Assembly (NCBI GenBank): GCA_030390025.1
Contig: CM059432.1
Coordinates: 21,330,001 to 21,394,000 of the forward strand
Direction: 5' to 3'
Source of the DNA: Squalus acanthias
Lineage: Eukaryota
DNA length: 64,000 nucleotides
The notes under the pieces were generated by a model, which saw only the letters and a program-made list of their open reading frames with translations, was not told the origin of the DNA and made no database searches. Positions 5,387 through 36,686 of the stretch are shown one piece after another; within the stretch, counting starts at the first letter, position 1; each line of letters opens with the position of its first letter. The position numbers and the translations under genes are program-made.

Positions 5387-6569
5387 CTTAGATGGGGACC
5401 AAGATGACTAGCAGCAGCAGGAGCAGCAGCACCAGCAGGAGCCTGCTACTCATAGACCTACAGCTCCACAGGAGAGAGTGGATTAGCAGAAGAGTGCAGC
5501 TCGAAGGAGGCCATACCTGGCACATAGGGTCTACAGGCAGAGGATAAGCTTCCTCGACATGTCGGAACACCAGTGTCTCAGGAGGCTCAGGCTGTTGCGT
5601 CAGGTGGTGGCAGACATTTTCAACCTGCTGGAACAAGACCTGCTGCCAACTGGACCTGGTGGCCATGCTTTACCAGTGGCTGTCAAAGTCACCACCGCCC
5701 TCAACCCTTTTGCCTCTAGATCCTTCCAGGGATCTGCCGGAGACAGGTGCAGGATCTTGCAGTCAGTGACACGCAAATGCATAAGACAAGTGACTGATGG
5801 CTTGTTTGCCAGGGCAGCCAATTATGTACACTTTGCCTGGAATAACGCCAGTCAGAATGAGTGGGTGCTTGGGTTTGCGGCTCTGGCTGGCTTCCCACAG
5901 GTGCAGGGCATCATCACTGCACACATGTGGCAATTAAGGCACCCCCAGATCTCCCAGAAGAAGTCAACAACCGCAAGGGCTTCCACTTAATCAATATGCA
6001 GCTGGTGTGCAACCACAAAAAGATCTTTAGGCAGGTATGCGCAAGATTCCCTGGCAGCTGCCATGATGCTTTTGTCCTGCGGCAGTCCACCTTCCCTAAT
6101 CTCTTCGCACTTTAAAGCAGAGTTACCGACTGGCTGCTCGGAGACAAGGGATACCCACTTAAAACGTGGCTGATGACGCCTCTCAGAAACCCAAGAATGA
6201 GGCCCAGGAGCGACACAATGAATGCCTTTTGACCACCAGTTGTGTCATCAAATAAGCCATCAGCATGCTGAAGATACACTTCAGGTGCCTGGACAGATCT
6301 GGAGGCGCCCTTTAGTATGCACCAGCCAGGGTCTCCAGAATGGCTATGGTGTGCTGCGCTCTGCACAACATTGCGCAGCAGCGAGGTTTGGACTTGCAGG
6401 AGGAACAAGGCACAGAGCACAGAGCCTTTTGGAGGATTCAGAGGAGGAGGAGGAGGAGGAGGGGGATGAGGAGGACGAGGACGAGAAAGTGGAAGGTGAT
6501 GCGGGCAATGCACCACCAGCAGCACACAATGCTGCCCGGGATGCCCTCATTATTGTGAGACTCACTTAG
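5387..6569 (+). pseudogene. Harbinger (HARBI1-like) DDE transposase, frameshifted
   Basis: Motifs [57 protein letters not shown] and an acidic tail spread over several frames. Confidence 0.9.
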
Positions 6570-7680
6570 GTTCCACCAGTACACCCATCTAACAACCACA
6601 TGGAAAAGTCACTTTTGCCCCCCTCCACCCAATGCCACTAACACAAAGCAGTCCTGCAAACAACCAAGCATCCCTTTCACTGCCCCCATTGCTCGGCATC
6701 AATTTATGTCTTCCCATTCATCATCACACAACTGAATAGGTGAATTGCTAGACAGCAACCAAGAAAGGACAAGATGGGAAAGTGGTGCAAAAGAATAATA
6801 TTCATGTGGTTCAAATAACAACAGAAACTTAACAATCTGACAATGTGTAACACACCCATATGCACACCCTTGTGCAACTACAAACCTTTTCTCTTCCTTT
6901 TCCTAGTACTTCCTGTGCAACCCCTGTGGCTTCAGTAGAGGTAGAGGCAGGCTGCTCAGATCCCTGCTATGACTGTTGAATTGTTCTTGGCCGATGTCGT
7001 CAGGGTTTTGGAGCCTATGAGGACCCTACCAAAGACTGTTCCACCTGCACCTGCGCAGGGGCAGATTTGGCCATCGGGAGACGAGGCAGCATGTGGGGTA
7101 CTGACTGAGGGGCGCGGGGGCAAAGGTTGAGAAGTGGAAGTGCTTTGAGCCGAGTCCCCACTTCCATGTTCCCTTTCCCTTCCTCCCGGCCCCCCAAGCT
7201 CCCCCACCATCAGCCCGCACCCCCCAATCAGGCTGACCTCCGGGTGGGGAACCCGATGGGGAACCCACCCTTTCCGTCGCATGCATGCTGTGGAGTGAAA
7301 ATTCCACAGCGTGCCGGGAAACCCGAACTTCCGGGTTTGCCGCCATCTCCCGGGTCTCCCCCGCACCATGCGGGATGGGACCTGGGAAAATCATATGTTT
7401 CCAACTACCCTGTCCATCCTTTCCTAATTTTAAACACTTCTATCAGAGTGCCCCATAATCTGCATTGTTCGAACAAAAATAGACTAATTTTTTCAAGACT
7501 TTCTTGTATTTTTATTTCTTAATACCAAGCAGGATCCGAGTGAATTTCTGCTGTACCCTCAGTGAAACATCACTATCCTTCCTATAGTGTGGAGACCAAT
7601 ATTGCACATGGTACTCTAACTGAGGTCTTATTAAAGTTTTGTAAAGACTTATCATAATCTCTTGGCTTTTATATTCTATG

Positions 7681-8450
7681 GGGGTGAAATTGGGTATCGC
7701 CCCGTTTGGGGCACTAACCTTTGAAATTTTGAAAATTTACCGACAGGCGTTAAGGATTCTGAACTTCTACTAAATTGGGTGTTAGCGCCCCAGGAAAGAA
7801 GTGGGGCGCTAAATCAAGCGCTAATGAACTCAGTGGGGTGCTTCAGGGGCGCTACCAGCAGAGCGCTAATGAATTTCAGGTGCAATGTATTCAGCAATGA
7901 TCCTTCACACTGGTTCTTCCTGCTCTTAAAGGGGAGGTTGCATCATTGTGCAGATGATACTCATTTTCAGCATTGCTGGCTTTGAGGCGACCTACGAGCA
8001 AGTGAATCCCCTGATGGCTATGGCTGTTCCCACTCCCAGGGAGAGAGCTCGTTGGTTCACAGACGTGGCATTGGAGGCATTGGTGGCTGGAGTGGAGCGA
8101 AGGAGGGCAATGCTGTCCCGGCCACTGGAAGGAGGCCATTGCCCCAGATGTTCAGGGCAATGTGGAGGGAAGTGGCCCAGGAGGTCTTGGCCAGTAGTGT
8201 GGTGGAACGCAGCCTGACACAGTGCCGCAAGAAATTCAACGACCTCAGTCGGGTGGTCAAGGTGAGTACATACTTCAACTGCTCCTACATACCAGCATCT
8301 GAACCTCAGTCTGTGCACACTGCGCCACCACTCACCCACCAAACATCTTCACCTACTCAAACTCACATCCACATCTCATGCCCTGCCTACAATCACAGTT
8401 ATTCAAAGATGGCAGGCATAGCTCCCAAACTCATAGCTGTACTCTGACTC
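7681..8450 (+). mobile_element. Harbinger left end with first exon of the Myb/SANT accessory gene (truncated)
   Basis: GGGGTGAAATTGGG terminus similar to 34213; RARWFTDVALEALV and W.EVAQEV...QCRKKFNDL followed by a GTGAGT donor. Confidence 0.8.
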
Positions 8451-9455: not shown

Positions 9456-10242
9456 ATGATATGGTGTGAGTCAGATTTGGATGATAACATTATAATCCTG
9501 ATTCCCTGACCCATGCTCCCATCTGGTGAGGCCCCAATCTGCAAGTGCAGCCTCACTGAATTTGCCCTTATACCCTGGCATGAGTCGACACATTCAGGGG
9601 AGGAATGTAAGGGGTGGGCGGGGGGGGCGGGGGGGGGGGGGGGATGGAAGACTGCAGAGAAAATTGGCGCAGACATAAAAGAAAAACCATGAGTGCTAGA
9701 AATCAGAAATACGAGTTGAAACTGCACAGCAGTTTAGTCAGCATCCGAAAGGGAAAGGCAGGTTAGCATTCTGGGCCGACTCTTTGTTCTCATGAAAGAT
9801 GTTGACTCATTCTGTGCTTTTGAAGCAATTTCTATTGTTACTGATAAAATATTTAGGGATAACTTTCTGATAGTCAAAAAATGTGCGCACTCGGTGTGCG
9901 AGAGCAGCAGCATGTAGTCAGAAGATTATCCCTTTTACCTCAGCGGAACTGTATGGAGCCTTAGGGAGGACCAGAGCGTCTTAATCTCAAGGTCTGTCAG
10001 GCCAGATCTAGGTTAGATGTTAAGAGGTGGTCCTTTTCCCAGAGAATAGTGGAACCGTGGAACAAGCTGCCGTTGTGCTTGTGCATTGAACACTGATTCG
10101 CTGAGTTCCTTCAAGTGAGAGCAGGACCTGTTTCTGGCTGGACCGAAGATCACCTTGAACAAGAGTTAGGTACCGTATAACATTAACCAGGTGTCCTGAC
10201 AATTCTGTTTCTCCATTCTCGAACGGAGAATGTCTTCCCACA

Positions 10243-12323
10243 ATCCGTACAGATTAGTGTGGGTTTAATAGGGTCTGCCTTTTCTAAAGCATACCGTAAT
10301 GCTGCGGCTTCAGCATATTGCGCTGTCTTATGGCCAAGGGGTATGGACAGTAATACTTCTGGATTAAAAGAATAGGAATCTCAAAGTCCCCACTACTATC
10401 CCCGTCCCAGCTGAGGATTGTTGGGATATCCCTTTTTTAATTGTCATTGAAGATCCATCACAGTAAATAACGAGATGATACTCTGTAAGCGGTCTCATAG
10501 GTATTTGTCTGATTCCCTCCTCCGTATCATCATCGTCCATGATGGGGAGATGCCCTAAGTCCATTTCTGGGGAGAGGAATTTAAAAATGAGTGTAGGATC
10601 ATTCAAGAACGATGCCCATTTATCATATCGGATCTGGGTGGCTCTTTTTTCATCAGAGGCCATCCTCAATACTGATCTTAAATTGGGAATCTCAGTATAG
10701 ATGGTAATGGGGTATTTCCCTTGAAGGGTTCTTGCCTTGATGAGGCATTGGACTACCATAGTCATGTCCCTTTCTTTTTTAATGTACCTCCTTTTGGCAT
10801 TGGAAAAGTTATAAGAATGGAACTGAATGGGCCCTATGCTCTTTTCATTATAGAAAACTGCAACTGCCACTTTAGGTGATAACCTGAGATGAATATTGAG
10901 GGGAGCTTGTAGGTCCCTCTGTTCCAGGTCTATGGCTTTTTGTACCTCTCGGCATAATTGTTGCAATTTTGAGTAATCATCTGGTGAAAATATGAATGGT
11001 CCTTTTGCTGCTTCGCCCACTCTAGCATACAGGGGGGCTGAGAGCTCGGCAAAGGTTGGCGTAAAGGATCGAGCAAAATTCAGGAGTCCTAAACTTGCTT
11101 GCAGATTTTTCAGAGTTTTAGGATATTGAATGGTGGCTAATTTTTCTTTATAGGATTGAGTTAATCCTCTACCGTTTCCAGTTATTCGCAGGCCCAGAAA
11201 ATCTACCTCTTCCCTAACTAGTTGACTCTTTTTTATGTTGATTAAGTACCCAGCAGCTGTAAGTCTGGATAAAACACTGTCAATGGCTTTCAAGTGCTCT
11301 TGGAGATTGTCATGTGACAGATATATATCGTCCACATAAGAATTGACGTTAGGTAGGTCTTTTAAAAGGTCAATGATGTGGGCTGAAAAGAGAACGGGAC
11401 TGTTTTGAAATCCCTGGGGCAATCTGGTCCAGCAGTACTGATAACCATCGGGTCCAGTCATCGCTGTTTTTGGCCAATCAGCTTTTTCGATTGGATGTGA
11501 CCAGAAGCCGTTTGCTAGATCAATACAAGATTTATATTTTTCCCTCGTGATTCCAGAGAGAAGGGCTGTGGAATTTTGCTGTTGTGCAGTATGTGGGGCC
11601 GTTACCCTATTTAAGGCTGTAGAATTGACCACTAATCTCCACCTCCCATCTGGTTTAGCAACACCAAACAATGGTGAATTAGTTCTAGGTGCCATTTTGA
11701 TTAAGATACCTTGTTCTGTTAGTTCTTTGAGCGTTGTTAGATCTATTTTTCCTTTGTGGTCTTGAATAGGCCACTGTTTTTTAGGTTTATTCCAGCCAGC
11801 ATCAAGTGGGTGGGGTTTGATGTCTATCTTTCCACATTGATTTGGATGGCGTTGTAGATAAGGGTAATATCTATTAATGAGTTGCTCGAGGAGGTCTTTG
11901 CCTCCCCCCTCTAGGCAAGTTCGATCAAGCTGTGTCCGAACATGTTTTTCCTTGTCACCCTGGTCTGTGGATGCTTCTACAGGTCTGGTTGAGATTTTAA
12001 GGTAATGTTTCATGGTCTGGTTGTCCTATAATGAGGGAACAGGCCAATTGTGGTACCAGTCCTACATCTAGGGTCACCGTGATTTCATATATGGTAATAG
12101 GTATTTTGTAAAAATTAATTATTTTGGTTTTAGCTTGTGTGAATCCCCCTGATGGTCTTTTACAAATTGGGCTCCCCAAATCTGTCCACTTAGTTTTTAT
12201 AATTGCAGGATCTATTACAGTGTAATCAGCTCCCGTATCAAACAGGGCCTTCACTTGTGTGTTTGTGGTCAAGGTTGCCAGGGCATAGGGGAATTCAAGA
12301 GGCCCTGGCTGGGTGCCAGGCCT
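10243..12323 (-). pseudogene. pol: Foamy-like pro-pol (aspartic protease, RT, RNase H), frameshifts at ~12013 and ~10380, truncated within RNase H
   Basis: LFDTGAD protease; IDLANGFWSHPI, YCWTRLPQGFQNSP, YVDDIYLSHD match spumavirus RT; RNase H YCDGS...SIPLGHKTAQYAE...ICTD resembles foamy SIPLGNHTAQMAE...VITD. Confidence 0.95.
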
Positions 12324-15300
12324 TCAATCCTGGGATTGTTCATCCTCAGGATCCTGAGTTTCATTTGCTGCTTTGTCTTTAATTATTTTAACTGATTTTT
12401 GTTCCTCCCTCTTGGGGGTATAATGTTTTCCAGATCCCTTAGGGGGTTTGTCAGACCGTTTATTATCTTGACGATCCTCCTGTTGGGGTGGACGTTGGTT
12501 CTGCCGGGAATCTTTTTGATCCCCATTTCGGTTTTCCCGGTATCCTCCCATGGCTCTCTGATAGTTTTGGCCAGTGTAAAAGCTGTCCCCATGGGGAGTC
12601 CACTGTCCTTCGCTTTCCTTTTGAGGTCTAGCCCCTCGTCTATCCCATCTTTCTGGGGAGAAATATTTCTTGTATTGTGGGCGAGTTGGGGGTGTAAACC
12701 TTCTGGAATACCCTCCTGGGGGTCCCGAGCCACGGGTTTGTGTCTGGGCGGGGTGGACTTGAGACTTGGGTCTATACAGTCCTTGTTTCTGAGTACCAAA
12801 GGTACCTTCTCCGGTTTTTTTATCCCTAGTTTCTGATCTCATTATAGGTTTAGTTTAGGGTAGACCTAAGAGGTCATGGTTTAATTGGATAATGCGATTG
12901 ACATTATCCCATCTTTGTTGGTTATCTCGATAATCTTTTAGAGCACCCTCACAGGCAAGTTTGAGGGCTGTATTTTGGTATTGATTGGCCAGGCAACCAT
13001 GGACAATGTACCAGTTATCCTGTGTAAGTACTTTGCCTAATCTGTAGGTAGCTACCAGCCCTTTAGTTGTGGCTGTATTAGTGAGTATTTCCTTGATGGA
13101 ACCCATTACATGCCCTCCCTGAGTTGCCATGAGAACATAGGCGTATATTTGAACCCAGTTGTTACACTGGTTTAATGGGGGAATTAAGTCTGAACTTAAT
13201 ATCATTTGTAGTAGTTGCCTCAGGTGTTGGGCATTCCAATCTTGGCAACAGGTTTCCAATTTATCAAGGTTAGTTAGAATCCAGCAGGTTTTTTCCTGGC
13301 TGGTGTTTCCCGGTCTACCACACATTGTGTAGATAGAGCTCAGGTTTACTTGACCTAGGGGCGCAATGTGTGATTGCTGGGGTTGGCTTACTGGACATAG
13401 AAACATAGAAACATAGAAAATAGGTACAGGAGTAGACCATTCGGTCCTTCGAGCCTGCACCGCCATTCAATGCGTTCATGGCTGAACATGCTACCTCAGT
13501 ACCCCATTCCTGCTTTCTCGCCATACCCCTTGATCCCCTTAGTTGTGAGTGTTATATCTAACTCCCTTTTGAATATATTTAGCGAACTGGCCTCAACAAC
13601 CTTCTGTGGAAGAGAATTCCATAGATTCACCACTCTCTGGGTGAAGAAGTTCCTCCTCAGCTCAGTCCTAAATGGCTTCCCCTTAATCCTTAGACTGTGA
13701 CCCCTGGTTCTAGTTTTCCCTACCATTGGGAACATTCTGCCCGCATCTAATTTGTCTAAACCAGTCAGGATTTTAAATGTCTCTATAAGATCCCCCCTCA
13801 TTCTTCTGAACTCCAGAGGATACAAGTTCAGTTGACCCAATCTTTCTTGATATGTCAGTCCGGCCATCCCAGGAATCAATCTAGTGAACCTTCGCTGCAC
13901 TCCCTCAATAGCAAGAATGTCCTTCCTTAAGTTAGGTGACCAAAACTGCGCACAATACTCCAGGTGTGGCCTCACCAAGGCCCTGTACAACTGTAGCATC
14001 ACCTCCCTACTCCTGTACTCAAATCCCCTTGCTATGAAGGCCATCATTCCGTTTGCTTTCTTGACTGCCTGCTGCACTTGCATTCCCACCTTCAGTGACT
14101 GATGTACCATGACGCCCAGGTCTCGTTGCACATCCCCTTTCCCTAATCTGCCACCATTCAGGTAATAGTCCGCCTCTCTATTTTTACCACCAAAGTGGAT
14201 AACCTCACATTTATCCACATTGTACTTCATCTGCCATACATTTGCCCATTCACCCAACCTGTCCAAGTCACTCTGTAGCCTCCTAGCATCCTCCTCATTG
14301 TTCACACTGCCTCCCAATTTAGTGTCATCCGCAAATTTGGAGATATTACATTTAATCCCTTCGTCCAAATCATTAATATATAATGTAAACAGCTGGGGTC
14401 CCAGCACCGAACCCTGCGGTACCCCGCTGGTCACTGCCTGCCATTCTGAAAAGTACCCATTTACTCCTACTCTTTGTTTCCTGTGTGCCAACCAGTTCTC
14501 AATCCACGTCAACACATTACCCCCAATCCCATGTGCTTTAACTTTGCTCACCAATCTCTTGTGTGGGACCTTGTCGAAGGCCTTCTGAAAGTCCAAATAC
14601 ACCACATCTACTGGTTCCCCCCTGTCCACCCTATTGGAAACATCCTCAAAAAATTCCAGAAGATTTGTCAAGCATGATTTCCCTTTCACAAATCCATGCT
14701 GACTTGGACCTATCATGTCGCCACTTTCCAAATGGTCTGTTATGACATCTTTAATAATTGCTTCCATCATTTTACCCACGACCGATGTCAGGCTGACCGG
14801 TCTATAATTCCCTGCTTTCTCCCTCCCTCCTTTTTAAAAAAGAGGGGTTACATTGGCCACCCTCCACTCCATCGGAACTGATCCAGAGTCTAAGGAATGT
14901 TGGAAAATGATCGTCAATGCATCCACTATTTCCAAGGCCACCTCCTTAAGTACTCTGGGATGCAGACCATCAGGCCCCGGGGATTTTTCAGCCTTCAGTC
15001 CCATCAATTTTCCCAATACCTTTTCCCGACTAATAAGGATTTCCCTCAGCTCCTCCCTCTTACCAGATCCTCTGACCCCTTTTATTTCCGGCAGGTTGTG
15101 TGTGTCCTCCACAGTAAACACTGAACCAAAGTATTTGTTCAATTGATCCGCCATTTCCTTGTTCCCCATTACGACTTCCCCTGTTTCCGACTGCAGGGGA
15201 CCTACGTTTGTTTTTACTAACCTCTTTCTTTTTACATATTTATAGAAGCTTTTGCAGTCCATTTTAATGTTCTCTGCAAGCTTCCTTTCATATTTTATTT

Positions 15301-16855
15301 TCCCTGCCCTAATCAAACCCTTCGTCCTCCTCTGCTGAGTTTTGAAGTTCTCCCAGTCCCCGGGTTTGCTGCTACTTCTGGCCAATTTGTATGCAACTTC
15401 CTTGGTTTTAATACTATCCCTGATTTCCCTTGTTAGCCATGGTTGAGCCACCTTCCCTTTTTTATTTTTATGCCAGACCGGGATGTACAATTGTTGTAGT
15501 TCATCCATGCGATCTCTAAATGTCTGCCATTGCCCTTCCACTGATAGCCCCTTAAATATCGCTTGCCAATTTAACCTCGCCAATTCACGCCTCATACCCT
15601 CAAAGTTGCCCTTATTTAAGTTCTGGACCATGGTCTCTGACTTAACTGTTTCCTTCTCCATCCTAATGTAGAACTCCACCATACTATGGTCACTCTTCCC
15701 CAGGGGGCCTCGTACCACAAGATTGCTGATTAGTCCCTCCTCATTACACAACACCCAGTCCAGGATGGCCTCCCCTCGAGTTGGTTCCTCAACATATTGG
15801 TTTAGGAAACCATCCCTTAAACACTCCAGGAAATCCTCCTCCACCGTATTGCTTCCAGTTTGAGTAGCCCAATCTATATGCATATTAAAGTCACCCATGA
15901 TAACTGCCGTGCCTTTTTTGCACGCACCTCTGATTTCCTGTTTCATACCCTCCCTCACCTCACTACTGCTGTTTGGAGGTCTGTACACAACTCCCACTAA
16001 CGTTTTCTGCCCTTTGGTGTTCTGCAGCTCAACCCATATTGATTCCACATCCTCCAAGCTGATGTCCTTCCTAGCTATTGCATTAATCTCCTCTTTAACC
16101 AGCAATGCTACCCCACCCCCTTTTCCTTTTATTCTATCCTTTCTGAATGTTGAATACCCCTGGATGTTCAGTTCCCAGCCTTGATTGTTCTGGAGCCACG
16201 TCTCTGTAATCCCAATCACATCGTATCCGTTAACATCTATTTGCACAGTCAATTCATCCACCTTATTACGGATACTCCTTGCATTAAGACACAGAGCCTT
16301 TAGGCTTGTTTTATTAACATCCTTTGTCCTTTTAGACTTATGATTTAGGACCAGTAATCATTGCGCCTCCAGCATTTAGATAAGATTGAGCTAGTGCCTG
16401 TCAGCATTGATTATAATGGATTCTAAGCTGTCTATAGTTTTCTCAAAGATTCTGGTCATTTATTTCATCATGAGCTTGCCACCTTAACCGGAATCCATGG
16501 CCCCCAGGAGCATAGGCTGCTCCGGGTCCTACTATTCGACCATGGTTGCCACCACCTTGTTGGGCACCGTTCATTAGGCCTCCCAATTGTGCGGGTGTGC
16601 ACCTTATCATTAAGGAATTTAGCGTATTTGTAGTATTTGTTTGATTATCCCACTGGATATTCTGTATCCCCTGGTTCTGGGGATCTTCATCAATCGTGCC
16701 ATGAGTTCTAATGGCTCCGTCGGCATCAAAGCCTTCTATTTCAAAAATTATCACTTGGTTTTGTGGAGGTACAGGGATAGGATTATTTCCCCTAATAAAG
16801 CAATCGTTTGAATTTCCTAATAAAAGACTTGGCCAATTCCGACATGGTTTGCCAT
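12324..16855 (-). pseudogene. gag: Foamy-like gag, split by a CR1 insertion, with an in-frame stop at 12855
   Basis: ATG in ACAAAATGGCA at 16855; central region CNNWVQIYAYVLMATQG...GLVATYRLGKVLTQDNWYIVHGCL...HDLLGL resembles the spuma capsid; G/R/Q-rich C-terminus with no CCHC knuckle. Confidence 0.85.
13395..16340 (-). mobile_element. Young 5'-truncated CR1 LINE; near-complete ORF2 (APE endonuclease + RT) with one nonsense codon at 14834
   Basis: LNARSIRNK, ITETWL, GDFN, SDH, YLDFQKAFDKVPH, FADDTK; the 475-aa and 427-aa ORFs share a frame; (TTCTATGT)n tail at ~13395-13420. Confidence 0.96.
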
Positions 16856-17098
16856 TTTGTCAGGACCTAACCTCGGTTAGGGTTTAATATGAACTTTTTC
16901 AGAAATTTCTAGACCTCAATGGTATATTGAGGGAGTTCTGATTTAAGTTCTACAAGGCCTGATCAGGGACTTGTCGTCTCTAGAGACTTAAATCTGGGTC
17001 TTAGTACCACTGTCAGTAAAACACTCCTTCTATACTTAACAATCTACAAGATGGATATAGATATAAATATAATGATAGGTTTTGTAACAACTCGTTAA

Positions 17099-17116
17099 CA
17101 CACACATTGGGCGCCA
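17099..17116 (-). promoter_or_regulatory. Primer-binding site, tRNA-Lys type
   Basis: TGGCGCCCAATGTGTGTG vs tRNA-Lys1,2 PBS TGGCGCCCAACGTGGGGC (14/18, first 10 exact), 2 nt after the LTR-terminal CA. Confidence 0.9.
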
Positions 17117-17118
17117 AC

Positions 17119-18362
17119 TGAAGGGGTAATTACTAGCCCTAGCCCCTTTAGGGCTACCCCGGATCAGGCGTATTCCTCAGACGTTCACTTTCAACTAAAG
17201 TTTGAGGTAGCCGAATCCTAAAGACACTTAATTGGGTCTAAAGGGAAGGAACAACCTAAAGATGTTACCGTCCTCCAGATAGCACTTTTAATAAGTTTAG
17301 CTAGACTGTAACATTCTGGATATTATGAGGGTCCGGAAAACTCCCTCAGAATTCTGCAACTCCTCACCAAAGAGCGTATAGAGATTGAGTTTGCGAGTTT
17401 GATACAGAAGTATTATGTGAGACAATTCTAAAAATACATAGATTTATTAAAGAACCGACATGTAATTACAGTAGGTGTTTCAATCGCAACATTAACAGTT
17501 CCAAAAAGAGAAAGCTTACAATTCTTATTATCAAATCTTAACTTCGCTACATTTTTACAGTTCTTAGTCTTATTCAGAATATCCACCAAAATCAAATACA
17601 GTACTGTTGATTCCCAAGACACAAAGAGTTGTAGACTTACAGAGCCTGCCTCTGAAGTCTGAGAATCGCTTTGGCCCTTTACAGCGAATCTATCATCCCA
17701 TTTGAAAGTTCAATATTTATATCCTTTTTCAGTGGTATTTCCTTTGAAGTTTTCTGCTGATGTAAGCTAATTATCTCTAGTCATTTTTCTGCTGACCCCT
17801 GCTATTCTTACAGTCAGTTCAGCTGGTAGCAATGCAGACTCGTGTCTCTCCTTTAGGTGTTCGAAGCTTACCATAAAAAATGGTGTAGCTGCAGGTGCAT
17901 CTATTTGATGTCATTCTTACCAAGGTCTTTTGTTTGTGTCTTTTTACGACATGTAAATTAAAACACCTCAACCAGGGTGATCTATCCAATTCTTAGTTAC
18001 CTCAGCTGGTTGCAACACAGAATCGTGTCTCCGGTGTTTCATTTGATGTCATTTTTACGAAGGCATATGTTTCTTAATTTTATGTGTTTCTTTCCGAAGT
18101 GTAATTTAGAACACCTTAACAGGGTGTACCATTGTGTTCTTTCCAAAGCTTCAGACTTCAGGAGCCTCCAACCTCCTGTTTCAATAAGGTTAATGATTCA
18201 GTGTCAACAACTTATCTTATCTCAATAGCCTGTATGCTGTTTACAGCTTTAGATTGTTAAGGCTTCCAGATTTCCAAACCCAGTTTGTCATGTTTTAATA
18301 AGGTCAGAATTCTTTCATAGAATGGTGTATTTTTCTGAATAGGCATGGCTCATTCTTTTACA
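17119..18362 (-). repeat. 5' LTR of the foamy-like ERV (~1.24 kb)
   Basis: Ends in CA at 17119; TATAAA 17721-17716; GTAAGT donor 17640-17635; AATAAA 17448-17443; outer TG boundary at 18362 or 18370. Confidence 0.75.
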
Positions 18363-20639: not shown

Positions 20640-21151
20640 TGTTGAAGTTTCGACTTCCGAGTAAGACTCTTTAAACAATATCGTCAAAGAAGGCTTTATT
20701 ATTTACTTTACTTGCAAGGAGAATGCAACGATGACAGACTGAAGAAATCACAGAAAATGGAAGATCTTATACACTGAAAACACAAGCTTCCCATATCACA
20801 TGACATGTTGTTTAAAGTAAGCTAAGTTACGAGTTAAAAAACATAAGAAATGCCTTACAATGAGACTAGCTAATCTCTACAAAATGGAGTCTGTTTGTCT
20901 GTTCTTCTCCCACCAAGGCCAAGGCACCTGGCTGTTTACTTCACTATTCCTTGGTTATCTCAAGTTGATTAGAAGAAGCATAATTTGTTCTGTACTATGA
21001 AAACAACATAGTCTGCAAAGTTTAATTTCATTTCCATGAGAAGTCATAAACAACTTCTTTCTTTATTCAATACAAGTCAGAGTCGGCCATTTTGGATCAC
21101 TCTTTGTGTCTAGGAAGCCATTTTGTCTGAGACAAAAACTGCACTTCCACA
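20640..21151 (-). repeat. 3' LTR (512 bp)
   Basis: Direct repeat of 27787-28315; adjacent PPT AAAAAAGGGGGGAA at 21165-21152. Confidence 0.97.
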
Positions 21152-21430
21152 TTCCCCCCTTTTTTGTCCTTCTCGGACAAAATAGCTCAATTTAACCCTT
21201 TTGGTCTCTCTTGTCGGTTCCTGTACCAAATTTGGATTTTGGCCAGGGATGGCAACTTCTTTTCTGTTTTAACCATCCTCGGGATTATACCTGTATTGAT
21301 GGCTGACCTTATTTAAGATTGTCTCTCCTTTCTGTCTATCCTTAGGGTTGGGCATGTAATTCTTTCAATTCTAATTTGTCCAGTCTTAATTTTGGCCACT
21401 GTAACTGGCATCATCTTGGTCATCTAATCC

Positions 21431-22829
21431 TTAAAAATTTATCTTACCCAATCGTCTTAGCTCTTCCCCTAGGGGACTGTCCTTCTCTTCCTCTTCATTT
21501 ATTTCCCTCTGTACTATCATACTTCCTCCAGGTATAACTGCCTTACCTAGCCTATTACAACAGCATTTAATCATTGTGACAAACAGAATTACTGCTACCA
21601 TTACTACTAATCCATACAATAATATTTGTCCCATTGATCCCAGCCATCCTCCCAGTATCCAGTCAAACCATCCTTGGTTCTTTGGATTCTTATACTGACT
21701 CACTGCATCTCTTATGTGTTTAACTATGTTAGTTATATTTTCTGAACTGTCTGGGATATAGGTACAACATTCACTCCCTATCAAAGCACAAGTTCCTCCT
21801 TTATTTGCCAACAGATAATCTAATGCCATTCGATTCTGCAATGTCATTACTCTTATAGCTAATATTTCAGCACTCATTTCGGACAATCCTTCCTCAGTTT
21901 AATTTGCCACTTTTTCTATCAGATCTGCTAGCTCGTTTACTGCTCCCATTAACTTCCCTATTCTGTATGGGGCTATTAATACTCCAAAGACTCTTTCATA
22001 AGTTGCTATCTCTCTTTTACTTCTTTGGAATTCATAATGTTCTCCTATATTGTCTAAAATGTGGATATAAGGTACTACATAACCCAAATAGCAGGACCCT
22101 GTCCAGTTATGTGGCAACCATGGATACGCCTTGTTCCCGCATATAAAATAGGTGCAATTATAGGCCGTCAAGTTACCCTCTCCTCCCATCCATATTCGGA
22201 TAGGGCCGCCTGTCCAGTGGGACCTACTGATTTTATTATTTACTTTAGTCCAGTCAAACTGAAAAAATCCCTGCTCAAGCAGGCCAGGAATTGGTGGTTG
22301 CCACATGACTGTTTGATGACAGGAACTCTCTCCGACTTTCTTTTCATCCTGCATCCTGCTTACTGCAGCCTGCTTTTTTTAAACATAATGCCCCTTGTAG
22401 TCTACCGACTCCTGAGGTATTAGTTAATACAAGAAACGGGGGTGTTCGAGTATGATTATAATTGGGCTGATACCACCCCTGGAAGGTGGTTAGGTTATAC
22501 CCTGCTGATCTCCACTGTTCTACATCTGAGGTCTTATCCGGGTCCCTTGAACTGTTTCTTCTTATTACCCATTCTGCTGTTTCGGAAGTATTAAAGGGAA
22601 TTGATCTGAGGGGGGTCCCTCCCGTGGTGTGAATAGGTATATGGGCACAGACCCAACAACTGGATCTACCACTAATTTTAGCATGCTCGTAAGACATGTA
22701 CAAGAAAGTGTTAACGTGTAATTCTCGTTTCTTTCGGGATCCTTCCCCACCTCTTTGGCACGTCATACGTATCAGTCCGATTAATATGCAAAAAATATAA
22801 GTAAAAGCTTCATTGTGTAAGTCCTTCAA
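21431..22829 (-). pseudogene. env: Gamma-type retroviral env, one frameshift (~22350) and one stop (21899)
   Basis: CWVC isomerase motif, RSKR furin site, fusion peptide, ISD LQNRMALDYLLANKGGTC, CX6CC (CALIGSECC), TM anchor. Confidence 0.95.
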
Positions 22830-23312
22830 AATTTAATTTTTTTGACTCCCTTTTTTCTGTCTATTACCCCCCACCCTGTGTTGTTTTGCATTTTACGTTT
22901 CCCTTATCACTTCTATTTGTCTTTTGATGCTTGATATTCGACCTTGCTGGCATTTCTGCTATCTATTCCTGGCTGCATGTTGTCAGTTTCTGTTCTAAGA
23001 ATTAAAACCCATCTTTGAATCTAACAGCTATTTCTTACAATTCCCTTCTTTGAGAAGGAAATAACCCTTATTGACTTCTCACAATCGGCTCTTGACTAAT
23101 CTAGCTAGTTCTTATTGCTCTCTCAACTTGGGCATTAGTTAGTAGGGAGTCTTGAAGATTTCCCCCTTCTAATAGTCCATTCCGGTGTTCCAATTCTGCC
23201 CCGCCTGGGGTATCCTCTGTTTCTTCTATCTTTCCTGATGTTACCCCGCCTGGGGTCTCCTCTACATTGCTTCGGATCTTCTCTTTCGGTGTGCTCAATT
23301 TGTTAGTGCTGG

Positions 23313-23880
23313 TTAGTCATGGGCATGAGTACCCAATTGGCTTGTGTATCTTACTACATAGGTTACATATATCAAATACACTATCATTACAAGTTGGAGA
23401 ACTACCAGAGCGTGTGAAATAATATGAATGTAAGGGTGTGCTGATGTATTAAGCCCAATATCCCACCCGTTGTCCCCTATGCTGTCAATTTCAATATCTA
23501 TTCTCGAGTTGTCTTCCTTCAGAACATAAACATGCTTTAGGGAGGAGTTCAGTCGCATCATGAGCTCACTGATAACCTTAGACAACAGGGGAATGTCGTA
23601 TCTGAATTATGCCACATAATTGTGCAGCTCATACTTAAGTATCTCATTTACTGTCAGTTCACTTGAGCATAGGTTTCGATATTATGTAAAACGTGTTGAT
23701 TGATGGGACAGGTCCTGTTAGATCCGTAAAGCATGGTAGTTGCGGTAGTAGTGACACAGGAGGCACCACCAAAACCACCTCATACTGGATTCGCACTGGT
23801 TTTTCCCACGCTCTGTTACCTACAAAACACAATTATTACAGTCACAGTTAAATTCAGTCTTACAATCATTTCAAGTGACA
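23313..23880 (-). pseudogene. env: Remnant of a second, non-gamma glycoprotein C-terminus (tentatively lokiretrovirus-like env)
   Basis: Cys-rich GGASCVTTT...YGSNRTCPI, then a heptad-like stalk, WDIGLN...HPYIHIISH and a hydrophobic TM ALVVLQLVMIVYLIYVTYVV. Confidence 0.5.
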
Positions 23881-25649
23881 TTACAGTTTAACATCTAATC
23901 AACAAATCATGGACTTAAAAGATTCTCCAGATCTCTCTTTTACTCATATCCATCTTGTGGATAATTCTTACTAAACATGATTTCTCCTTAGCCCTCAATT
24001 GTCCCAATTCAGATTCCAGGTAACTCTCCACTTCAACTTCAATTTCAATCCCTCTAACAGGTACCAGTGTATTTAACTCTATTCTGATTGTTTCATTAAT
24101 TAGATAGTTTCTCGATGGAGTATGTGTCAATGCTTTAAAAGTTGTCTCGCTCTCCTGAGCCACATTAACCATTTCATGTTTTGCTGTTGTCAAGTAACTG
24201 AGCATGTCTGAGACCCGTTCTTCAGTGCAAATTCAACATACATTTCCAGATGGTAATCGCTTCATACGTAACAAATCACATTTGCACACTCATACCGGTA
24301 TTTCAATATCATGCCACATGTGCCTTTCTCGGGCTTTCAGGTATCTTATCATAAGATTGTCTTTGTTCGTCTTCCTCTGCATGGTCCCGATGTCTTGGAT
24401 AGTGGCCAGGCTATCATATTCAGTTTTCTTAAAAAGTTCATTATAGGCAGGGACACAAATGTCTCCAAGAGAAAGCTATCAATTTATTATTCTTAGCTAC
24501 ACTTTCCTGACTTTCACCAGAAAGTTTTTTTAAAATTCCCATTCAGCAGTGTAATTCTCCTGTTTCAATCTTACACCTTCAATCACTTCCTCTCTAATTA
24601 TTATTCATATCTCATTCATGAGCCCTGGAGAAACTTTACTGTCCAGTACAATATTTAAGATTGAAAACATAGATCAAACATTCTCACTAGGTCCAAGTTA
24701 TTAAAACTTTTTATTTATCATTATTTTAGAGGATCTTTTATTTTCCCAAAAGTAACCCAATATATATATAGTGCCTGAGTCCATTTTGTTATTACAACAT
24801 TATCCCAAAATCCAAACAGCAGTACTGTTGAATTGATAGGTTTTGTCAATGTTCAATTTCATTTCTATCAATTTATCTTATCAATTCCAATTTCAGAAAC
24901 AAATGATTACCAGGCTAGGTGGTTTATACAGTGTTTTAACATTAGAGACAGAAGTGCTGCAATTAGTTTACAAGGTAACTTCCATATAACAAAGGAAAGA
25001 AGAGACTCCATTGTGACTCTACTTAGAGCCCAAGGAGTTAATTTTTCAAATCATAATTTTCCTTCTGTCACTGTGGGGAAACATTAACTTAAAATTAATA
25101 ATGTCCAATATCTTTAAATGTCATCTAAAGTTGTTGCTCGGTGAACTTAATCAGCTGTCAGTGGAAAGGGTTAACTCCTTTGCAGGTCTTTAAGAAGGTG
25201 AGCGAAACATTGTCAGGTGCACGCAATTGCATCACTTCACATAAATTTAAAAAAACTTTCCCGATCCAAAAAAGCAGTTGTGTTTTCACACTTTAACTAA
25301 ACACGAACAGAACAGATAAAACAAAACAAAATAGCACATGCTTGCAGAAGCAGTAAATTACATCATATTTCTTATTGTCCTTTCTTCAGATGTCTTTCCA
25401 AAATACTGTAAAAACATTGAATATAACTGGAGAAAAATTAGTTTTTCACATTTAAGCAAATCAAATCAAACTGCGTTGGAAGATTTCACCATAGCAACCG
25501 CGACTCCAAGGTTAAATCTTAGACCGAAACTTAATCTTTTGTTAAACAAACTTTTTGTTGTTCTTCTCAGTTTTTACACACCAGCTTAACTTAAATTGTA
25601 GTTCAAAGTTTTTTTTTCTAATTCTTGGGGCACAATGCTTTCCCTGCAA

Positions 25650-25800
25650 AGTCTGATATAAAATTCCTGTCTATCCCTGACAGTAAAGGCAAATTTCCCT
25701 TGTGATTCCTCTGCCAATGGTATGGACCAGAACCCGTTCTGTATCCAAGACTGTAAATATTTCAAAATCTGGTTTCAGACCATTAAATATCTTATTCAAT
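25650..25800 (-). pseudogene. pol: Short retroviral RT remnant
   Basis: Manual translation LNKIFNGLKPDFEIFTVLD/NGFWSIPLAEESQGKFAFTVRDRQ with one frameshift. Confidence 0.8.
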
Positions 25801-26440
25801 GCGGTCTACACAAATTTACACCAACCAGAATTTCACCGTGCACAATGAAAGTCTGGTTTTTAATAGGTTAATTAACCTCAATAATTCCAATTCAATCCAG
25901 ATCAATTTAAAAAAAAAACTAACCAGTGTCAGTTGGAAAAGAAAGAAACCATAGTCACATTAACAAAGAAACAATTACCCATGACTTGTAAACATTCAAA
26001 TTAATTTTCTTTCCAGGCACATTGGCAACTGTGACTTCAAGGCTGAAGCTTATACCTCTTTTGTAAAACAATTAACAAACTTAAACCAACAACGCTTGAT
26101 TATCATTCAAGACAAGTCTTCAAAGGGTTAAACAGCTTTTAGCTCTCTGTACAAAAGAGTGGGTGGAGCTAAAACATAAACAAAATGACAGACACCTTTT
26201 TTTTTAGACAGATTTTTTCAGACAAAATAATACTGTAACTTAACAAACCTAAACATTCACAGTCAGTTTTTCTTTCACCCTTTTCACACACACTTTCACC
26301 AACTGAGATCCCAGTATTCCTTTTAAGATTCCTTTCACTCAACAAATCTTGTGTATTAGCTTTTATCTCGGCACAGACATTAATAACTTCCATGCCGATA
26401 AAACTTTAAATTTCTTCTTTTTTTACATTCCTTTCAGATT

Positions 26441-27032
26441 TCAATGTCGGTAAATTCCTTCTACATACACCTGTAGTCCCTTTTCTGAACAAATTATTGT
26501 TGCTTGCATTTTGCATAGCAAATCTCTCCCTAAAAGGTTCATAGGAGCATTGTCTGATAGGAGAAAGGCATGTTGGTCAGAGAAATTGTCTGCTTGTATT
26601 GAATAAATAGTATTCTGGTCCGTCGGTGTTGCGGAAGCTGCTTGCTCCATTAAGAGGGAAACTTTATTCTTTTGGTCCCTATTTCTCTCCTGAATTCCTT
26701 TCAGATTTTGTGTCAATTCAGGAGTTGTTTTATGTCTCCAATCTAGGCAGACTAAAGTCAGTGGTTCTTTAAGTTCTGTTCTGAGACCATTTACGAGGGC
26801 ATTGATTAAAGGAATCTGGTAATTTTCTTTGGTCATTCCAATTTGCGAGACAGTCCTCTAGACATGTAATTCTGTCTAGGTTAAAAGTTCCATCAATAGG
26901 GAACGGGTGTTTGTCATTCTTGGTCCATTTAGACCAATCAGACAAATCCCTTGTGGATGTCCGACCACAGTTCTGGAAGATGTAAAAAGCTGGAGTTCCT
27001 TTTTCTGGGATCTTACTCTGTGAAGTTCCCAT
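26441..27032 (-). pseudogene. gag: Internally deleted epsilon-like gag (MA and end of CA) fused to the protease C-terminus
   Basis: MGTSQSK myristoylation signal, FPIDGTFNLD, ALVNGLRTELK, then HAFLLSDNAPMNLLGRDLLCK. Confidence 0.85.
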
Positions 27033-27760
27033 CTTAGTAAAGTTTTAATTATACTAGGCACTCTTCTTCTAAATCGCAAGTTTCACCCTTTACCCCCTTA
27101 CGATTATTTCTGACCATCCAAAGTTCTACAAGACAATAACAAGAACTAACAACAATCAAGACAATTATAAGTAAGATGTAAAAGCCCAAACAGGCAAACA
27201 AATCAAGTAATCAAACATTTAACCTTATACTTTAAACTAAACAAATAGTCAATTCTCAGTTTTGCATTGTTCTCCACTACAAACTGAGTCCTTAACATTT
27301 AACTTATAGTCTATACTCTGCCGCGAGATTCTTTTTTTTTTCTTCTTTCACGGCTCAAGGGGCCCACCCTTGATACTGCAGTTTTAATCTTTTATCTAAA
27401 CCTTTCTGCAGTTTTAATCTTTTAGCGCTTTCTCATAACCTGGTACCTTTACTCAGTCCGGGATACAACCCTGTCGACTTTTTCCCTTGCCTCTTTTGCC
27501 CGATAGTTTTGAAACTTGAGCTGTCAGTATCCTCCTCCTTTTTTTTAACGTTAAAAAAGCAAAAGCTACAAGATTCAACTCAAATCTAAAACACAAGTCT
27601 TAACAATCGCAGTACTCCTGTCGGAAGAAACAGACCACACCAATTCAGTATCTAATGAGAAATCCTTTTTTTGTGATAAAACATCACTGTGGCCATTCAG
27701 GATTTGTCACTAGAAATTCATGGTGTCTTTTGTCCGTGACTTACCGAAAGGTAGCAAGCG

Positions 27761-27778
27761 ATCTCGGTGGGACCTCCA
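27761..27778 (-). promoter_or_regulatory. Primer-binding site, tRNA-Gln
   Basis: TGGAGGTCCCACCGAGAT, the 18-nt complement of the tRNA-Gln 3' end; GTAAGT donor at 27744-27739 just downstream. Confidence 0.93.
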
Positions 27779-27786
27779 AGAAATAC

Positions 27787-28315
27787 TGTCGAAGTTTCGA
27801 CTTCCAAGTAAGACTCTTTAAACAATATCATCAAAGAAGGCTTTATTATTTACTTTACTTGCAAGGAGAATGCAATCATAGCCAAATAGCTACGATGACA
27901 GACTGAAGAAATCACAGAAAATGGAAGATCTTATACACTGAAAACACAAGCTTCCCATATCACATGACATGTTGTTTAAGGTAAGCTAAGTTACGAGTTA
28001 AAAAACATAAGAAATGCCTTACAATGAGACTAGCTAATCTCTACAAAATGGAGTCTGTTTGTCTGTTCTTCTCCCACCAAGGCCAAGGCACCTGGCTGTT
28101 TACTTCACTATTCCTTGGTTATCTCAAGTTGATTAGAAGAAGCATAATTTGTTCTGTACTATGAAAACAACATAGTCTGCAAAGTTTAATTTCATTTCCA
28201 TGAGAAGTCATAAACAACTTCTTTCTTTATTCAATACAAGTCAGAGTCGGCCATTTTGGATCACTCTTTGTGTCTAGGCAGCCATTTTGTCCGAGACAAA
28301 AACTGCACTTCCACA
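27787..28315 (-). repeat. 5' LTR (529 bp)
   Basis: Matches 20640-21151 except about 6 substitutions and a 17-bp indel (counted by eye). Confidence 0.97.
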
Positions 28316-34569: not shown

Positions 34570-36392
34570 ATGGAGAGGGTGAGAGAACGCGCTCATCGCT
34601 TCACCGAGCGGGCCTTGGATGCTCTGGTTGGCGCAGTGGAGCGCAGACGATGCATGCTGTTCCCGGAGAGTGGCAGGAGGCCTTTGCCACGCGAGTTCAG
34701 AAGAGTGTGGAGGGAGGTGGCTCAGAGCGTCTCCTCCAGGAGCATGGTGCCCAGGACCCATGTTCAGTGCCGCAAAAAATTCAACGACCTCACTCGGGTC
34801 GTCAGGGTGAGTGGCTTTTTCTCAATACCTCTCCATCCCTCCATCTCAACCTCACTATATGGCCAGAGGGTCTTAAAACCCCAATGCACAACACTCATGC
34901 AACACCTATGGCCCTTTCATCAAACACACACACACATTCCACACTTTGCATACAGTAAGGGCTATTCACCTATGGGAGGCACATCAGGCAAGACCATGGC
35001 TGCATATTGTAAGGGCTATTCACCTATGGGAGGCACATCAGGCAAGACCATGGCTGTATATTTACTCAGATGCTGTCCTTTTTCTTGCAGGCTAAGCTGG
35101 CTCATAATCGGAGACAGCAGCAACGGACGGGTGGAGGGTGGCTTCAGCTGCAACCCCTCAGCGATCTGGAGGAGCGCGTCCACAGGATTGTGGCAAGCCG
35201 GGTGATCGGTCGCGTCGCCACTGGGGACGCCGACCCCGTTGTGGACAGCAATGGTAAGGTCATCACCTTTTTGTCCTCTGTCCTTCCACTTGTCCCTCAC
35301 AATACCAGCCTTTGACACTTTCAATCCAACTTGCTAACTCGCTGCACTTATTCCTCCCTTACTGCCACCCTGTCCTCACGCTAAAGCCACTCTTGTACCT
35401 CCCTGCTTTCAGATGGTGATTCACCAGCTGAGGAGATGGTCCCTGAAGCTGCCACTGGGAGTGATGCTGCAGCTGAGGATGAAGAGGAAGCCGGAGCATC
35501 AGTGCCACCCTCTCCCGAGGAAGCCCATGGCCACACTGGGAACACGCCTTCCCCGGAGGGGAGCAGGGGGGAAGGGGCTGATGATGGTGAAGCTCCAGGA
35601 CCCAGCGGGCTGCAGCAACGCCATGGGGGGGGGAGGGAAGAACGGGAGCCTTCTCCCCAGAGGGAGAGTATGCCAGACACTCCTACTGCAATGGACGCAG
35701 AGGAGGAGCGGCTGATTGCAGAAATGAACAGCCAGGCGGTGGGCATGCACACTGAGCTCATGGGTGCAGTGGGAAGGGTGCCCGAATGCATTGAGGCACT
35801 GGCAAGGAGTATGGAGCACTTCGCTGTAGCACAGGCGGATGCCACACTAAAGCTTAGTGCTGCAATTCAGTCACTGGTTGCCAGGAACCCATCTGAGACT
35901 GCTCTCATGCAGACTCAGATTGAGGCCACGCGAGCACTGACTGCTGCCATCCTCGATGGTTCGTGCACATGTCCCCGGGGCTGTCACCGCGCCGCAGCAG
36001 GCCAGCAATCTGTTCTCCGGCAAATTGCTCCGGATGCTGAAGTGCTGCCCCGTGGGAGTGCCAGTGTGTCGGGCGAGCAGGGAGTTGCTGTCCTCTCTCA
36101 CGATGACAGCATTCCTGCAGCCAACACTGTCACTTCTCCACTGCACTTGCCACCGCCTGTAGGACAGACTGCTGCCGCCCATGCAGAGTTGGTGCAGTCT
36201 GCAGCCGGGCCCTCCAGGCCCAGAAGTGGTCGAGGCCGTCCTTCAGGGGCATCTGCAGTGTCAGGGTCTGACGAGCAGCAGCCTTCCACCAGCCTTGCTG
36301 CAGCCACTGAGGTCCCATTACGGAGGAGCAGTAGGGTTAGAAGGGGGGAAGTGCGCAAGGGAAGGAGATCACCCTCGAAGGGCAAAAAGTAG
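34570..36392 (+). CDS. Harbinger Myb/SANT-like DNA-binding protein, 3 predicted exons (34570-34806, 35091-35253, 35413-36392), 459 aa
   Basis: RAHRFTERALDALV...WREVAQSV...QCRKKFNDL; GT-AG introns of phase 0 and 1 give an uninterrupted frame; basic NLS-like C-terminus. Confidence 0.85.
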
Positions 36393-36686
36393 GAGGTGTG
36401 CCAAAATGCTGGTCATTTTTTTATTAAAGGCCGAGGTTCATGGCCCAACTTTTGTTTAGTGTTTTGGACATTATCTCCAGGTTGTGAGAACCAGTTATGT
36501 TATTGACTGTTTTTTTGTGTTTATTTCTATGAGTTTGTCATGAGGAATTGACACACACAGAGTTTGTACAATAAATAAGTTTCTGTATTCAAAATATACA
36601 TGGCTGGTGGTTGGAATTATTGGTGCCTTGGCCGGCTTAGGGGTTGCGTGCTGGGTTGATTCGTGTTTGTAGCAATGGCAGGGGCC

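Follow-up and report, generated by a model that had tools for sequence, protein, structure and literature searches.

We examined a 64-kb stretch of the Squalus acanthias genome (assembly GCA_030390025.1, contig CM059432.1, positions 21,330,001 to 21,394,000; hereafter the window), whose minus strand carries a foamy-like endogenous retrovirus (ERV), and compared this element with related loci in the same genome. We consider it likely that the element belongs to a high-copy foamy-like family, most of whose sampled copies carry the same env deletion, and that the family spread by intracellular retrotransposition with a Gag-Pol made by UGA readthrough. More tentatively, the family would represent a cartilaginous-fish lineage of the true foamy branch that still made readthrough Gag-Pol, had no accessory genes and, through one env deletion, became a long terminal repeat (LTR) retrotransposon with hundreds of copies. 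The window copy by itself is ordinary: a dead, decayed fragment, truncated at its 3′ end and interrupted by a CR1 element. The family matters more than this copy. Its two main features are an env deletion common to most sampled copies and an in-frame TGA at the gag-pol boundary; neither can be recognized without other copies, and the initial annotation of the window missed both.

The foamy-like nature of the element was evident in its coding remnants. A 553-codon frame (12025-10367) scored 373 bits against foamy protease-reverse transcriptase (PR-RT) structures, compared with 112 for Ty3 RT and 100 for MLV RT, and it matched foamy PR-RT at 3e-110 and, in Pfam, RVT_1 at 4e-26 and part of Spuma_A9PTase at 5e-5. 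The frame at 13466-12858 corresponds to the foamy Gag central domain (Pfam Gag_FV_central, PF20672, 3.3e-14), and the Gag central region of copy L015 matched the prototype foamy virus (PFV) Gag structures 5m1h and 8ozk. In family copies gag spans ∼525 codons, or 1,575 nt counted from the ATG; its ATG site is kept in nearly all copies covering it, and no Gly follows the start Met. The gag tail lies in the only frame free of shared stops and consists of 10% G, 11% R, 11% Q, 10% K and 10% P (G+R 21%), with no Cys and no CCHC motif.

The size of the family was estimated with three probes, each of which yielded candidates, not copy numbers: 471 for pol, 486 for the stretch across the env-deletion junction, and 4,977 at first look for a 401-nt part of the LTR. 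Forty pol candidates were scored and, the window itself aside, were 91-97% identical, and all 40 scored junction candidates spanned the junction at 94-100%. Our sample comprises 38 of the 39 other scored pol loci, the remaining one having been fetched with the env-bearing set. Downstream of the point that matches the window's break, these copies continue through RNase H, the integrase core, its SH3 domain, a short spacer and the polypurine tract (PPT) to a 3′ LTR, which lies only ∼2.1 kb away and so leaves no room for env.

Env was found at eight loci by combining the Pfam foamy Env model (six loci, a floor because this search used a stricter first look) with a 5′ env probe (six loci, seven of seven candidates). 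These loci belong to the same family by their LTR, gag, pol or integrase matches (internal parts 85-94% identical, pol 87-94%), and their Env fragments gave matches to PF03408 and to structures of foamy gp130. When the sampled copies were aligned to one env-bearing locus, 33 of the 38 lost the match at a common edge (positions 872-875); both sides of env lay within 100 nt of each other in 27, and four did not reach the site. About 3.2 kb of env is missing, and its first ∼92 codons persist as a frame of 110-125 codons. The one copy with a different edge, L082 (at L082:2447-2764), probably records a second, independent env loss. Four of the 33 edge-sharing copies (L075, L076, L086 and L087, on unplaced contigs) have a common gag insertion and form one clade, with L075 and L076 also sharing a flank, and these look like segmental or assembly duplicates of one insertion.

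In a nucleotide tree, the env-bearing loci were basal, L082 came next, and the window copy was nested in a star-like env-less clade (support 0.90), with L013 as its neighbor (0.99). In two DNA runs under other organism labels, contigs covered all 30 bins of the env-less stretch from pol to PPT, so the family seems common to related species. Two X19 contigs bridged the env-deletion junction, its place estimated; that X17 and X19 are RNA runs is a guess, and neither splicing level nor strand can be read from contigs.

The second main feature lies at the gag-pol junction. Across 37 copies outside the env-bearing set, the gag-end codon was TGA in 26, TGG in 8, TGC in 2 and TCA in 1; the catalytic Asp of the protease followed it by 87 nt in 33, and none had an in-frame ATG between this codon and the protease. 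The independently env-deleted L082 also has the TGA layout. One shared frame, a single TGA and no in-frame ATG point to a readthrough Gag-Pol, not the separate Pol of foamy viruses, and UGA readthrough is the likely route to Pol predicted from this gene layout. Comparable in-frame TGA layouts are described in passages on XtERV-S (PMC8278194) and on some fish and frog retroviruses (PMC13517186, in passages that contain neither "foamy" nor "spuma"), and part of PMC3196705 reports that PFV tolerates an engineered in-frame Gag-Pol fusion.

All eight TGG copies fall in a nine-member subclade (support 0.99; L045, L071-L074, L079, L080, L083 and L085). In eight of the nine, 993 nt of the capsid core are deleted, and the deletion is in frame in four of the seven whose gag start is covered. 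L073, which combines TGG with an undeleted gag, may be either ancestral or a recombinant. We read the subclade as a lineage that would have fixed a short Gag-Pol fusion and borrowed its Gag. Singleton changes in RT (36 copies) were spread evenly over the three codon positions (194/212/207), which is what post-insertion decay should produce. Changes common to at least four copies favored the third position (15/12/33, p 0.002). The third-position bias was present in the gag-deleted subclade (9/7/31) and in the env-bearing loci (1/4/18), and the ratio of nonsynonymous to synonymous polymorphism (pN/pS) was 0.32 and 0.27, respectively; the site counts omit the duplicates L076, L086 and L087. The bias in an env-less subclade suggests that Pol stayed under selection after env was lost; part of such signals could come from CpG decay and from recombination with helpers. 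The main burst itself looks, from the pattern of its changes, like copying from one or a few sources.

We propose a history in which an enveloped ancestor of ∼12 kb, organized as LTR-gag-TGA-pol-env-LTR, would have entered the germline. One provirus would then have dropped ∼3.2 kb of env while keeping the first ∼92 codons. Its env-less capsids would have stayed inside the cell, because foamy Gag lacks a membrane-targeting signal and depends on Env for budding, and would have reintegrated there, giving a star-like burst from one or few source elements. Further deletion forms, namely the in-frame gag-deleted TGG subclade and env-bearing forms without protease, RT and RNase H, may have been carried along, and the window copy, by its tree position, would have been part of the burst and decayed afterward. 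Passages of PMC3705263 state that foamy budding requires Env and that primate foamy viruses are capable of intracellular retrotransposition.

Several observations weigh against this history. The window copy has no env region, so its own env-less status follows from its place in a shallow tree (the clade with support 0.90). The extent of the burst is expressed in candidates, and the Pfam count of env-bearing loci is a floor. In the main group of 24 copies (counted without L051, L077 and L082), shared RT changes showed no third-position enrichment (36/25/29) and pN/pS was 0.62, a pattern that few-template copying or help supplied in trans would explain no less well than autonomous replication. 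P0012, a 1,687-residue foamy-clade Gag-Pol from Logan with a single open frame and no stop at the junction, speaks for the readthrough reading by its place in the same RT clade, yet its grouping with the element is weak (86/53), and its Gag had no significant likeness to the family Gag (E 1.2). Readthrough itself is predicted from layout: a hairpin can be drawn after the TGA but is not more stable than shuffled sequences (z −0.8 to −1.5), and the TGA context fits neither of the type II UGA hexamers listed in the available part of PMC13517186.

These last points bear on an alternative that we regard as unlikely, in which the history is the same but Pol comes from a spliced mRNA with its own AUG, either in an upstream exon or at an out-of-frame ATG 40 nt past the stop, and the TGA is a plain gag stop. 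The lack of an outstanding readthrough structure would be expected here, and in passages of PMC3705263 and PMC8278194 all studied foamy viruses express Pol separately, with no Gag-Pol fusion. Moreover, the only one of the eight env-bearing loci that covers the junction has the TGA plus a 2-nt gap that brings an ATG into frame 15 codons before the catalytic position; decay has affected this locus, including the catalytic codon. The gene model of a salamander relative (P0175) likewise has a Met shortly before the protease. However, spliced Pol has to contend with the 37 other copies, all without an in-frame ATG and 33 of them in exact phase, and with L082, whose TGA layout accompanies a separate env deletion. 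The alternative ATG would leave only ∼15 residues ahead of the catalytic Asp, and one subclade turned the stop into TGG while its RT was kept under selection. UGA readthrough is the route to Pol that we prefer, as a prediction.

How far the env-less copies were self-sufficient was weighed separately. They might instead have been packaged and spread in trans by env-bearing helpers followed by reinfection, like defective interfering genomes, a scenario we find improbable. For some forms, outside help in copying is clear: on different chromosomes, three env-bearing loci (L069, L089 and L091) have one common deletion of protease, RT and RNase H that joins the gag tail to integrase, which implies that a Pol-less form was copied with such help, and 8 of the 38 sampled copies lack the gag core. 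There is also little sign of selection within the main burst. Yet env-bearing loci are rare (8 versus ∼470 candidates) and sit on long basal branches, and RT was under purifying selection in the env-less subclade, though recombination with helpers could mimic this. We favor intracellular retrotransposition as the likely mode of spread.

We also considered whether the element is foamy-like at all, and new. In a HMMER search of 1.84 billion representatives, feline foamy virus (FFV) Pol was the best match (39% identity); it was followed by P0012 (35%) and by models from Scyliorhinus torazame (40%) and Callorhinchus milii (34%). The RT was 39-41% identical to mammalian foamy Pol, and no protein in the searched libraries exceeded ∼42%; word-based homologue searches were insensitive (1 and 9 matches). 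An IQ-TREE RT tree was built from 35 rows and 413 columns, chosen from 143 rows by a coverage filter, as the 62 best by score and then by hand, with no named CoeEFV, ERV-L or snakehead retrovirus (SnRV) rows. In it the window RT, five mammalian foamy viruses, a Pleurodeles element, P0012 and the S. torazame model P0014 formed one clade (98/96) with no resolved order inside it. The C. milii protein P0015 and the teleost elements fell outside this clade, within a wider one of foamy viruses, shark and teleost elements (100/100), and the window RT lay outside the other-ERV and Gypsy-like rows. P0014 joins a foamy-like RT to a PR/SET domain under the source name PRDM11 and is probably a gene-model artefact. 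The Pleurodeles protein P0176 had the appearance of a Gag-Pol fusion but was rejected and left out of the count: the catalytic motif of the protease, present in P0175, is missing from it, and it is probably the product of a spliced-together gene model.

The element is very unlikely to be an ERV-L, snakehead-like or Gypsy element or one of the described shark elements, ERV-Spuma.0-Sca and CmiFLERV. Env loss and an in-frame TGA are, it is true, also known from class III ERVs, XtERV-S among them (a passage of PMC8278194), and the available part of PMC10699275 gives ERV-Spuma.0-Sca 293 catshark hits with gag and pol both in frame 3. Against this stand the foamy-specific Gag and Env Pfam domains, the scores against PDB structures and the tree, and, for the described elements, the annotated 866-nt LTRs, 982-codon pol and 1.3-kb env and the teleost grouping of ERV-Spuma.0-Sca and the 34% identity of the elephant-shark protein. 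No near-identical described element was found, ERV-Spuma.0-Sca having been compared by its annotation. The literature searched, with most subscription papers, bioRxiv supplements and Repbase/Dfam outside its scope, contained no env-less high-copy foamy family and no readthrough Pol in a foamy-clade element. The family is apparently an undescribed foamy-like ERV. The initial annotation had proposed as much, and the RT phylogeny that it suggested as a check grouped the element with foamy viruses among the rows named above. Its phrase "deep-branching lineage" needs care, given that the RT clusters with the foamy viruses of mammals and salamanders and not with the elephant-shark and teleost elements. 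Its mention of Spumaretrovirinae hallmarks was an overstatement, as a separately started Pol is absent.

The ends of the element carry a foamy-type set of features: a long LTR, a 4-nt target site duplication (TSD), a GGGTG motif at the PPT/LTR border and a primer binding site (PBS) of presumed Lys type. The PBS was at the same site in 13 of 20 copies, and the other 7 had no match within the stretch searched. Among 11 copies with both edges, 10 had a 4-nt TSD (8 exact, 2 with one mismatch). It is extremely unlikely that the copies arose mainly by segmental or assembly duplication, as the four copies with the common gag insertion would suggest for themselves: the distinct TSDs largely refute this, the two LTRs of each copy are nearer to each other than to the window's LTR, many chromosomes carry copies, and the window flank matches no other copy. 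GGGTG was present in most of the 3′ LTR starts listed, and this border motif is given as a foamy feature in part of PMC5210030. For 14 LTR pairs of at least 400 nt, Kimura two-parameter (K2P) distances were 0.011-0.049 (median 0.034); below this cut-off fell L084 (382 nt, K2P 0.40) and two other pairs. These distances correspond to 11-49 million years at 0.5e-9 per site per year, a rate assumed for catshark in part of PMC10699275 and not measured here.

In the window copy, all retroviral features lie on the minus strand. The 5′ LTR (17119-18362; 1,244 nt, TG...CA) had its extent fixed by comparison with the 3′ LTRs of other copies, which it matches end to end at 83-90%, and the PBS (17116-17099) begins 2 nt past its CA end. 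The 5′ part of gag (16348-16855; start codon at 16855, no N-terminal Gly) has a frame broken near the start. It is followed by the inserted CR1 (13397-16347), the gag central (capsid) domain (12858-13396) and the G/R/Q/K/P-rich tail without a Cys-His box (12327-12857). A premature stop (12857-12855) opens the tail, at a site that is a sense codon in 25 of the 26 other copies covering it. The single TGA (12324-12326), the candidate readthrough codon, separates gag from pro-pol in one frame. The aspartic protease (12000-12323) was placed by its DTGA motif at 12239 and by weak RVP and gag-asp_proteas matches. The end of the protease, the RT, the connection domain and the start of RNase H occupy 10367-12025, with frame changes at both ends, that is, at the protease end and in RNase H. 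The remaining RNase H (10195-10380), placed by motif and family alignment, has a ∼90-nt internal deletion, and the copy ends there. Retroviral homology stops at 10239, with the exception of one more 50-nt piece (10244-10195). Searches of the rest of the window and of the 30 kb beyond the window start recovered neither integrase nor env nor a 3′ LTR for this copy.

The initial annotation, made from the window alone, was partly confirmed. YVDD (11338), YCWTRLPQGF (11437), DLANGFW (11521) and, in another frame, the RNase H motif LGHKTAQYAE (10338) are all present; the capsid-like segment is the Gag_FV_central domain; the LTR does exceed 1.2 kb; and a genome-wide LTR search did return further candidates. 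The Gag tail indeed has no zinc knuckles, and "GR-rich" describes it only modestly. A Gag_spuma model, proposed there as a check, gave no match at E up to 1 in another copy's frame, and no CTRS pattern was found in Gag, either of which could be due to divergence; PF20672 did match. The range of 9850-18362 holds at the LTR end and not at the other, where 9850-10194 is a LINE fragment. The view that this copy could be restored by removing the CR1 and mending a few lesions is not supported, as the whole 3′ half is gone.

The CR1 is a 5′-truncated, non-retroviral LINE, also on the minus strand, whose ORF2 (APE and RT; Exo_endo_phos and RVT_1 matches) is well preserved, with ∼950 codons and one stop. 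It is flanked on both sides by GGAC, and other family copies run uninterrupted across the site. It matched an ENA protein at 84%, a model from the stingray Hypanus sabinus at 74% and bird and turtle proteins at 47-53%; the inserted CR1, with its nearest named relative in a stingray, fits the cartilaginous-fish setting that had been suggested. The LINE 3′ fragment at the truncation point (∼9880-10194, edges approximate, plus strand) showed a weak tblastn match to the end of CR1 ORF2 (E 1.8e-4) and no match to family copies.

Two other kinds of element were seen in the window. An unrelated ERV lies on the minus strand at 20640-28315. In an alignment of 529 columns, its LTRs (20640-21151 and 27787-28315) differ by 6 mismatches and 17 gap positions. 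It retains env pieces of the TLV_coat type (22378-21434) and part of a protease (26857-26444), and it has no long pol frame. A Myb/SANT frame at 5388-8447 stands beside transposase-like fragments, with similar pieces near 35800-37900 and 61800-63800 and long inverted matches; we take these to be copies of a Harbinger-type DNA transposon, probably.

Descriptions of endogenous foamy viruses usually present them as rare and as carrying env. The finding of env at ∼8 loci versus roughly 470 candidate internal copies indicates that a foamy element can rise to high copy number as a repeat, probably a retrotransposing one. If the history proposed here is true, the env-deleted family would exemplify, in nature, foamy retrotransposition inside germline cells. 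What most separates foamy viruses from other retroviruses is that they express Pol independently; an in-frame UGA in the foamy clade, together with a natural stop-to-Trp subclade, makes the origin of this trait testable. If readthrough is true, spliced independent Pol would be a later invention of the tetrapod/lobe-fin branch. The family, moreover, places a chondrichthyan branch close to the foamy viruses of tetrapods, a point relevant to dating by co-divergence.

Compared with the mammalian foamy viruses (PFV, simian foamy virus [SFV] and FFV), the family is alike in its RT with YVDD, Gag central domain, absence of a Cys-His box and of an N-terminal Gly, integrase SH3 domain, long LTR, 4-nt TSD, presumed Lys-type PBS and, at the env-bearing loci only, foamy Env. 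It differs in that pol shares the frame of gag and has no ATG of its own, in having no Gag_spuma or CTRS match and no bel-like frame seen, and in being mostly env-less and high-copy. One env-bearing locus had no sense frame of at least 70 codons between env and the LTR, and no frame after the env remnant of env-less copies exceeded 58 codons; PF03274 (Foamy_BEL) matched nowhere, controls included, and so provides no evidence on bel genes.

ERV-L and IAP elements offer a parallel in behavior: Magiorkinis et al. reportedly described in 2012 how such env-less "superspreaders" lost env and then gained greatly in copy number. The same env loss and copy gain are seen here in a family that is foamy-type and has env-bearing relatives in the same genome. 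In XtERV-S and the gamma- and epsilonretroviruses, too, a single stop (TGA for XtERV-S) divides gag from pol within the same frame, according to passages of PMC8278194, but theirs is an ERV-L-like or orthoretroviral Gag-Pol with a gamma-type TM, whereas Gag, Pol and Env are foamy here.

Among the foamy-like ERVs (FLERVs), those of salamanders and coelacanth (NviFLERV, the Pleurodeles element and CoeEFV) share foamy Gag and Env domains with the family (PMC3386198 and 10.1101/2020.12.18.423569, in part); as described, they keep env and have one or two accessory frames. The Pleurodeles model is in the same RT clade (98/96), yet its RT is only ∼32% identical to the family's; the tree had no CoeEFV row. 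CmiFLERV of the elephant shark is a cartilaginous-fish FLERV too, with only pol detected in the part of PMC5512871 that describes it. ERV-Spuma.0-Sca of the small-spotted catshark resembles the family in its high copy number and similar oldest LTR age and is set apart by its annotation; its gag and pol are annotated in one frame, so the in-frame layout may not be unique (PMC10699275, in part). As delimited in passages of PMC5512871, a foamy-like ERV is endogenous and has an RT that clusters with foamy viruses and foamy-virus-like fish ERVs, as the family does; FLERVs are clade Tu in part of PMC6001957. We do not file it in Spumaretrovirinae proper, because a separately started Pol was sought in its layout and not seen. 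By its gene content the family would act like a foamy virus turned retrotransposon, and it belongs with the foamy-like ERVs.

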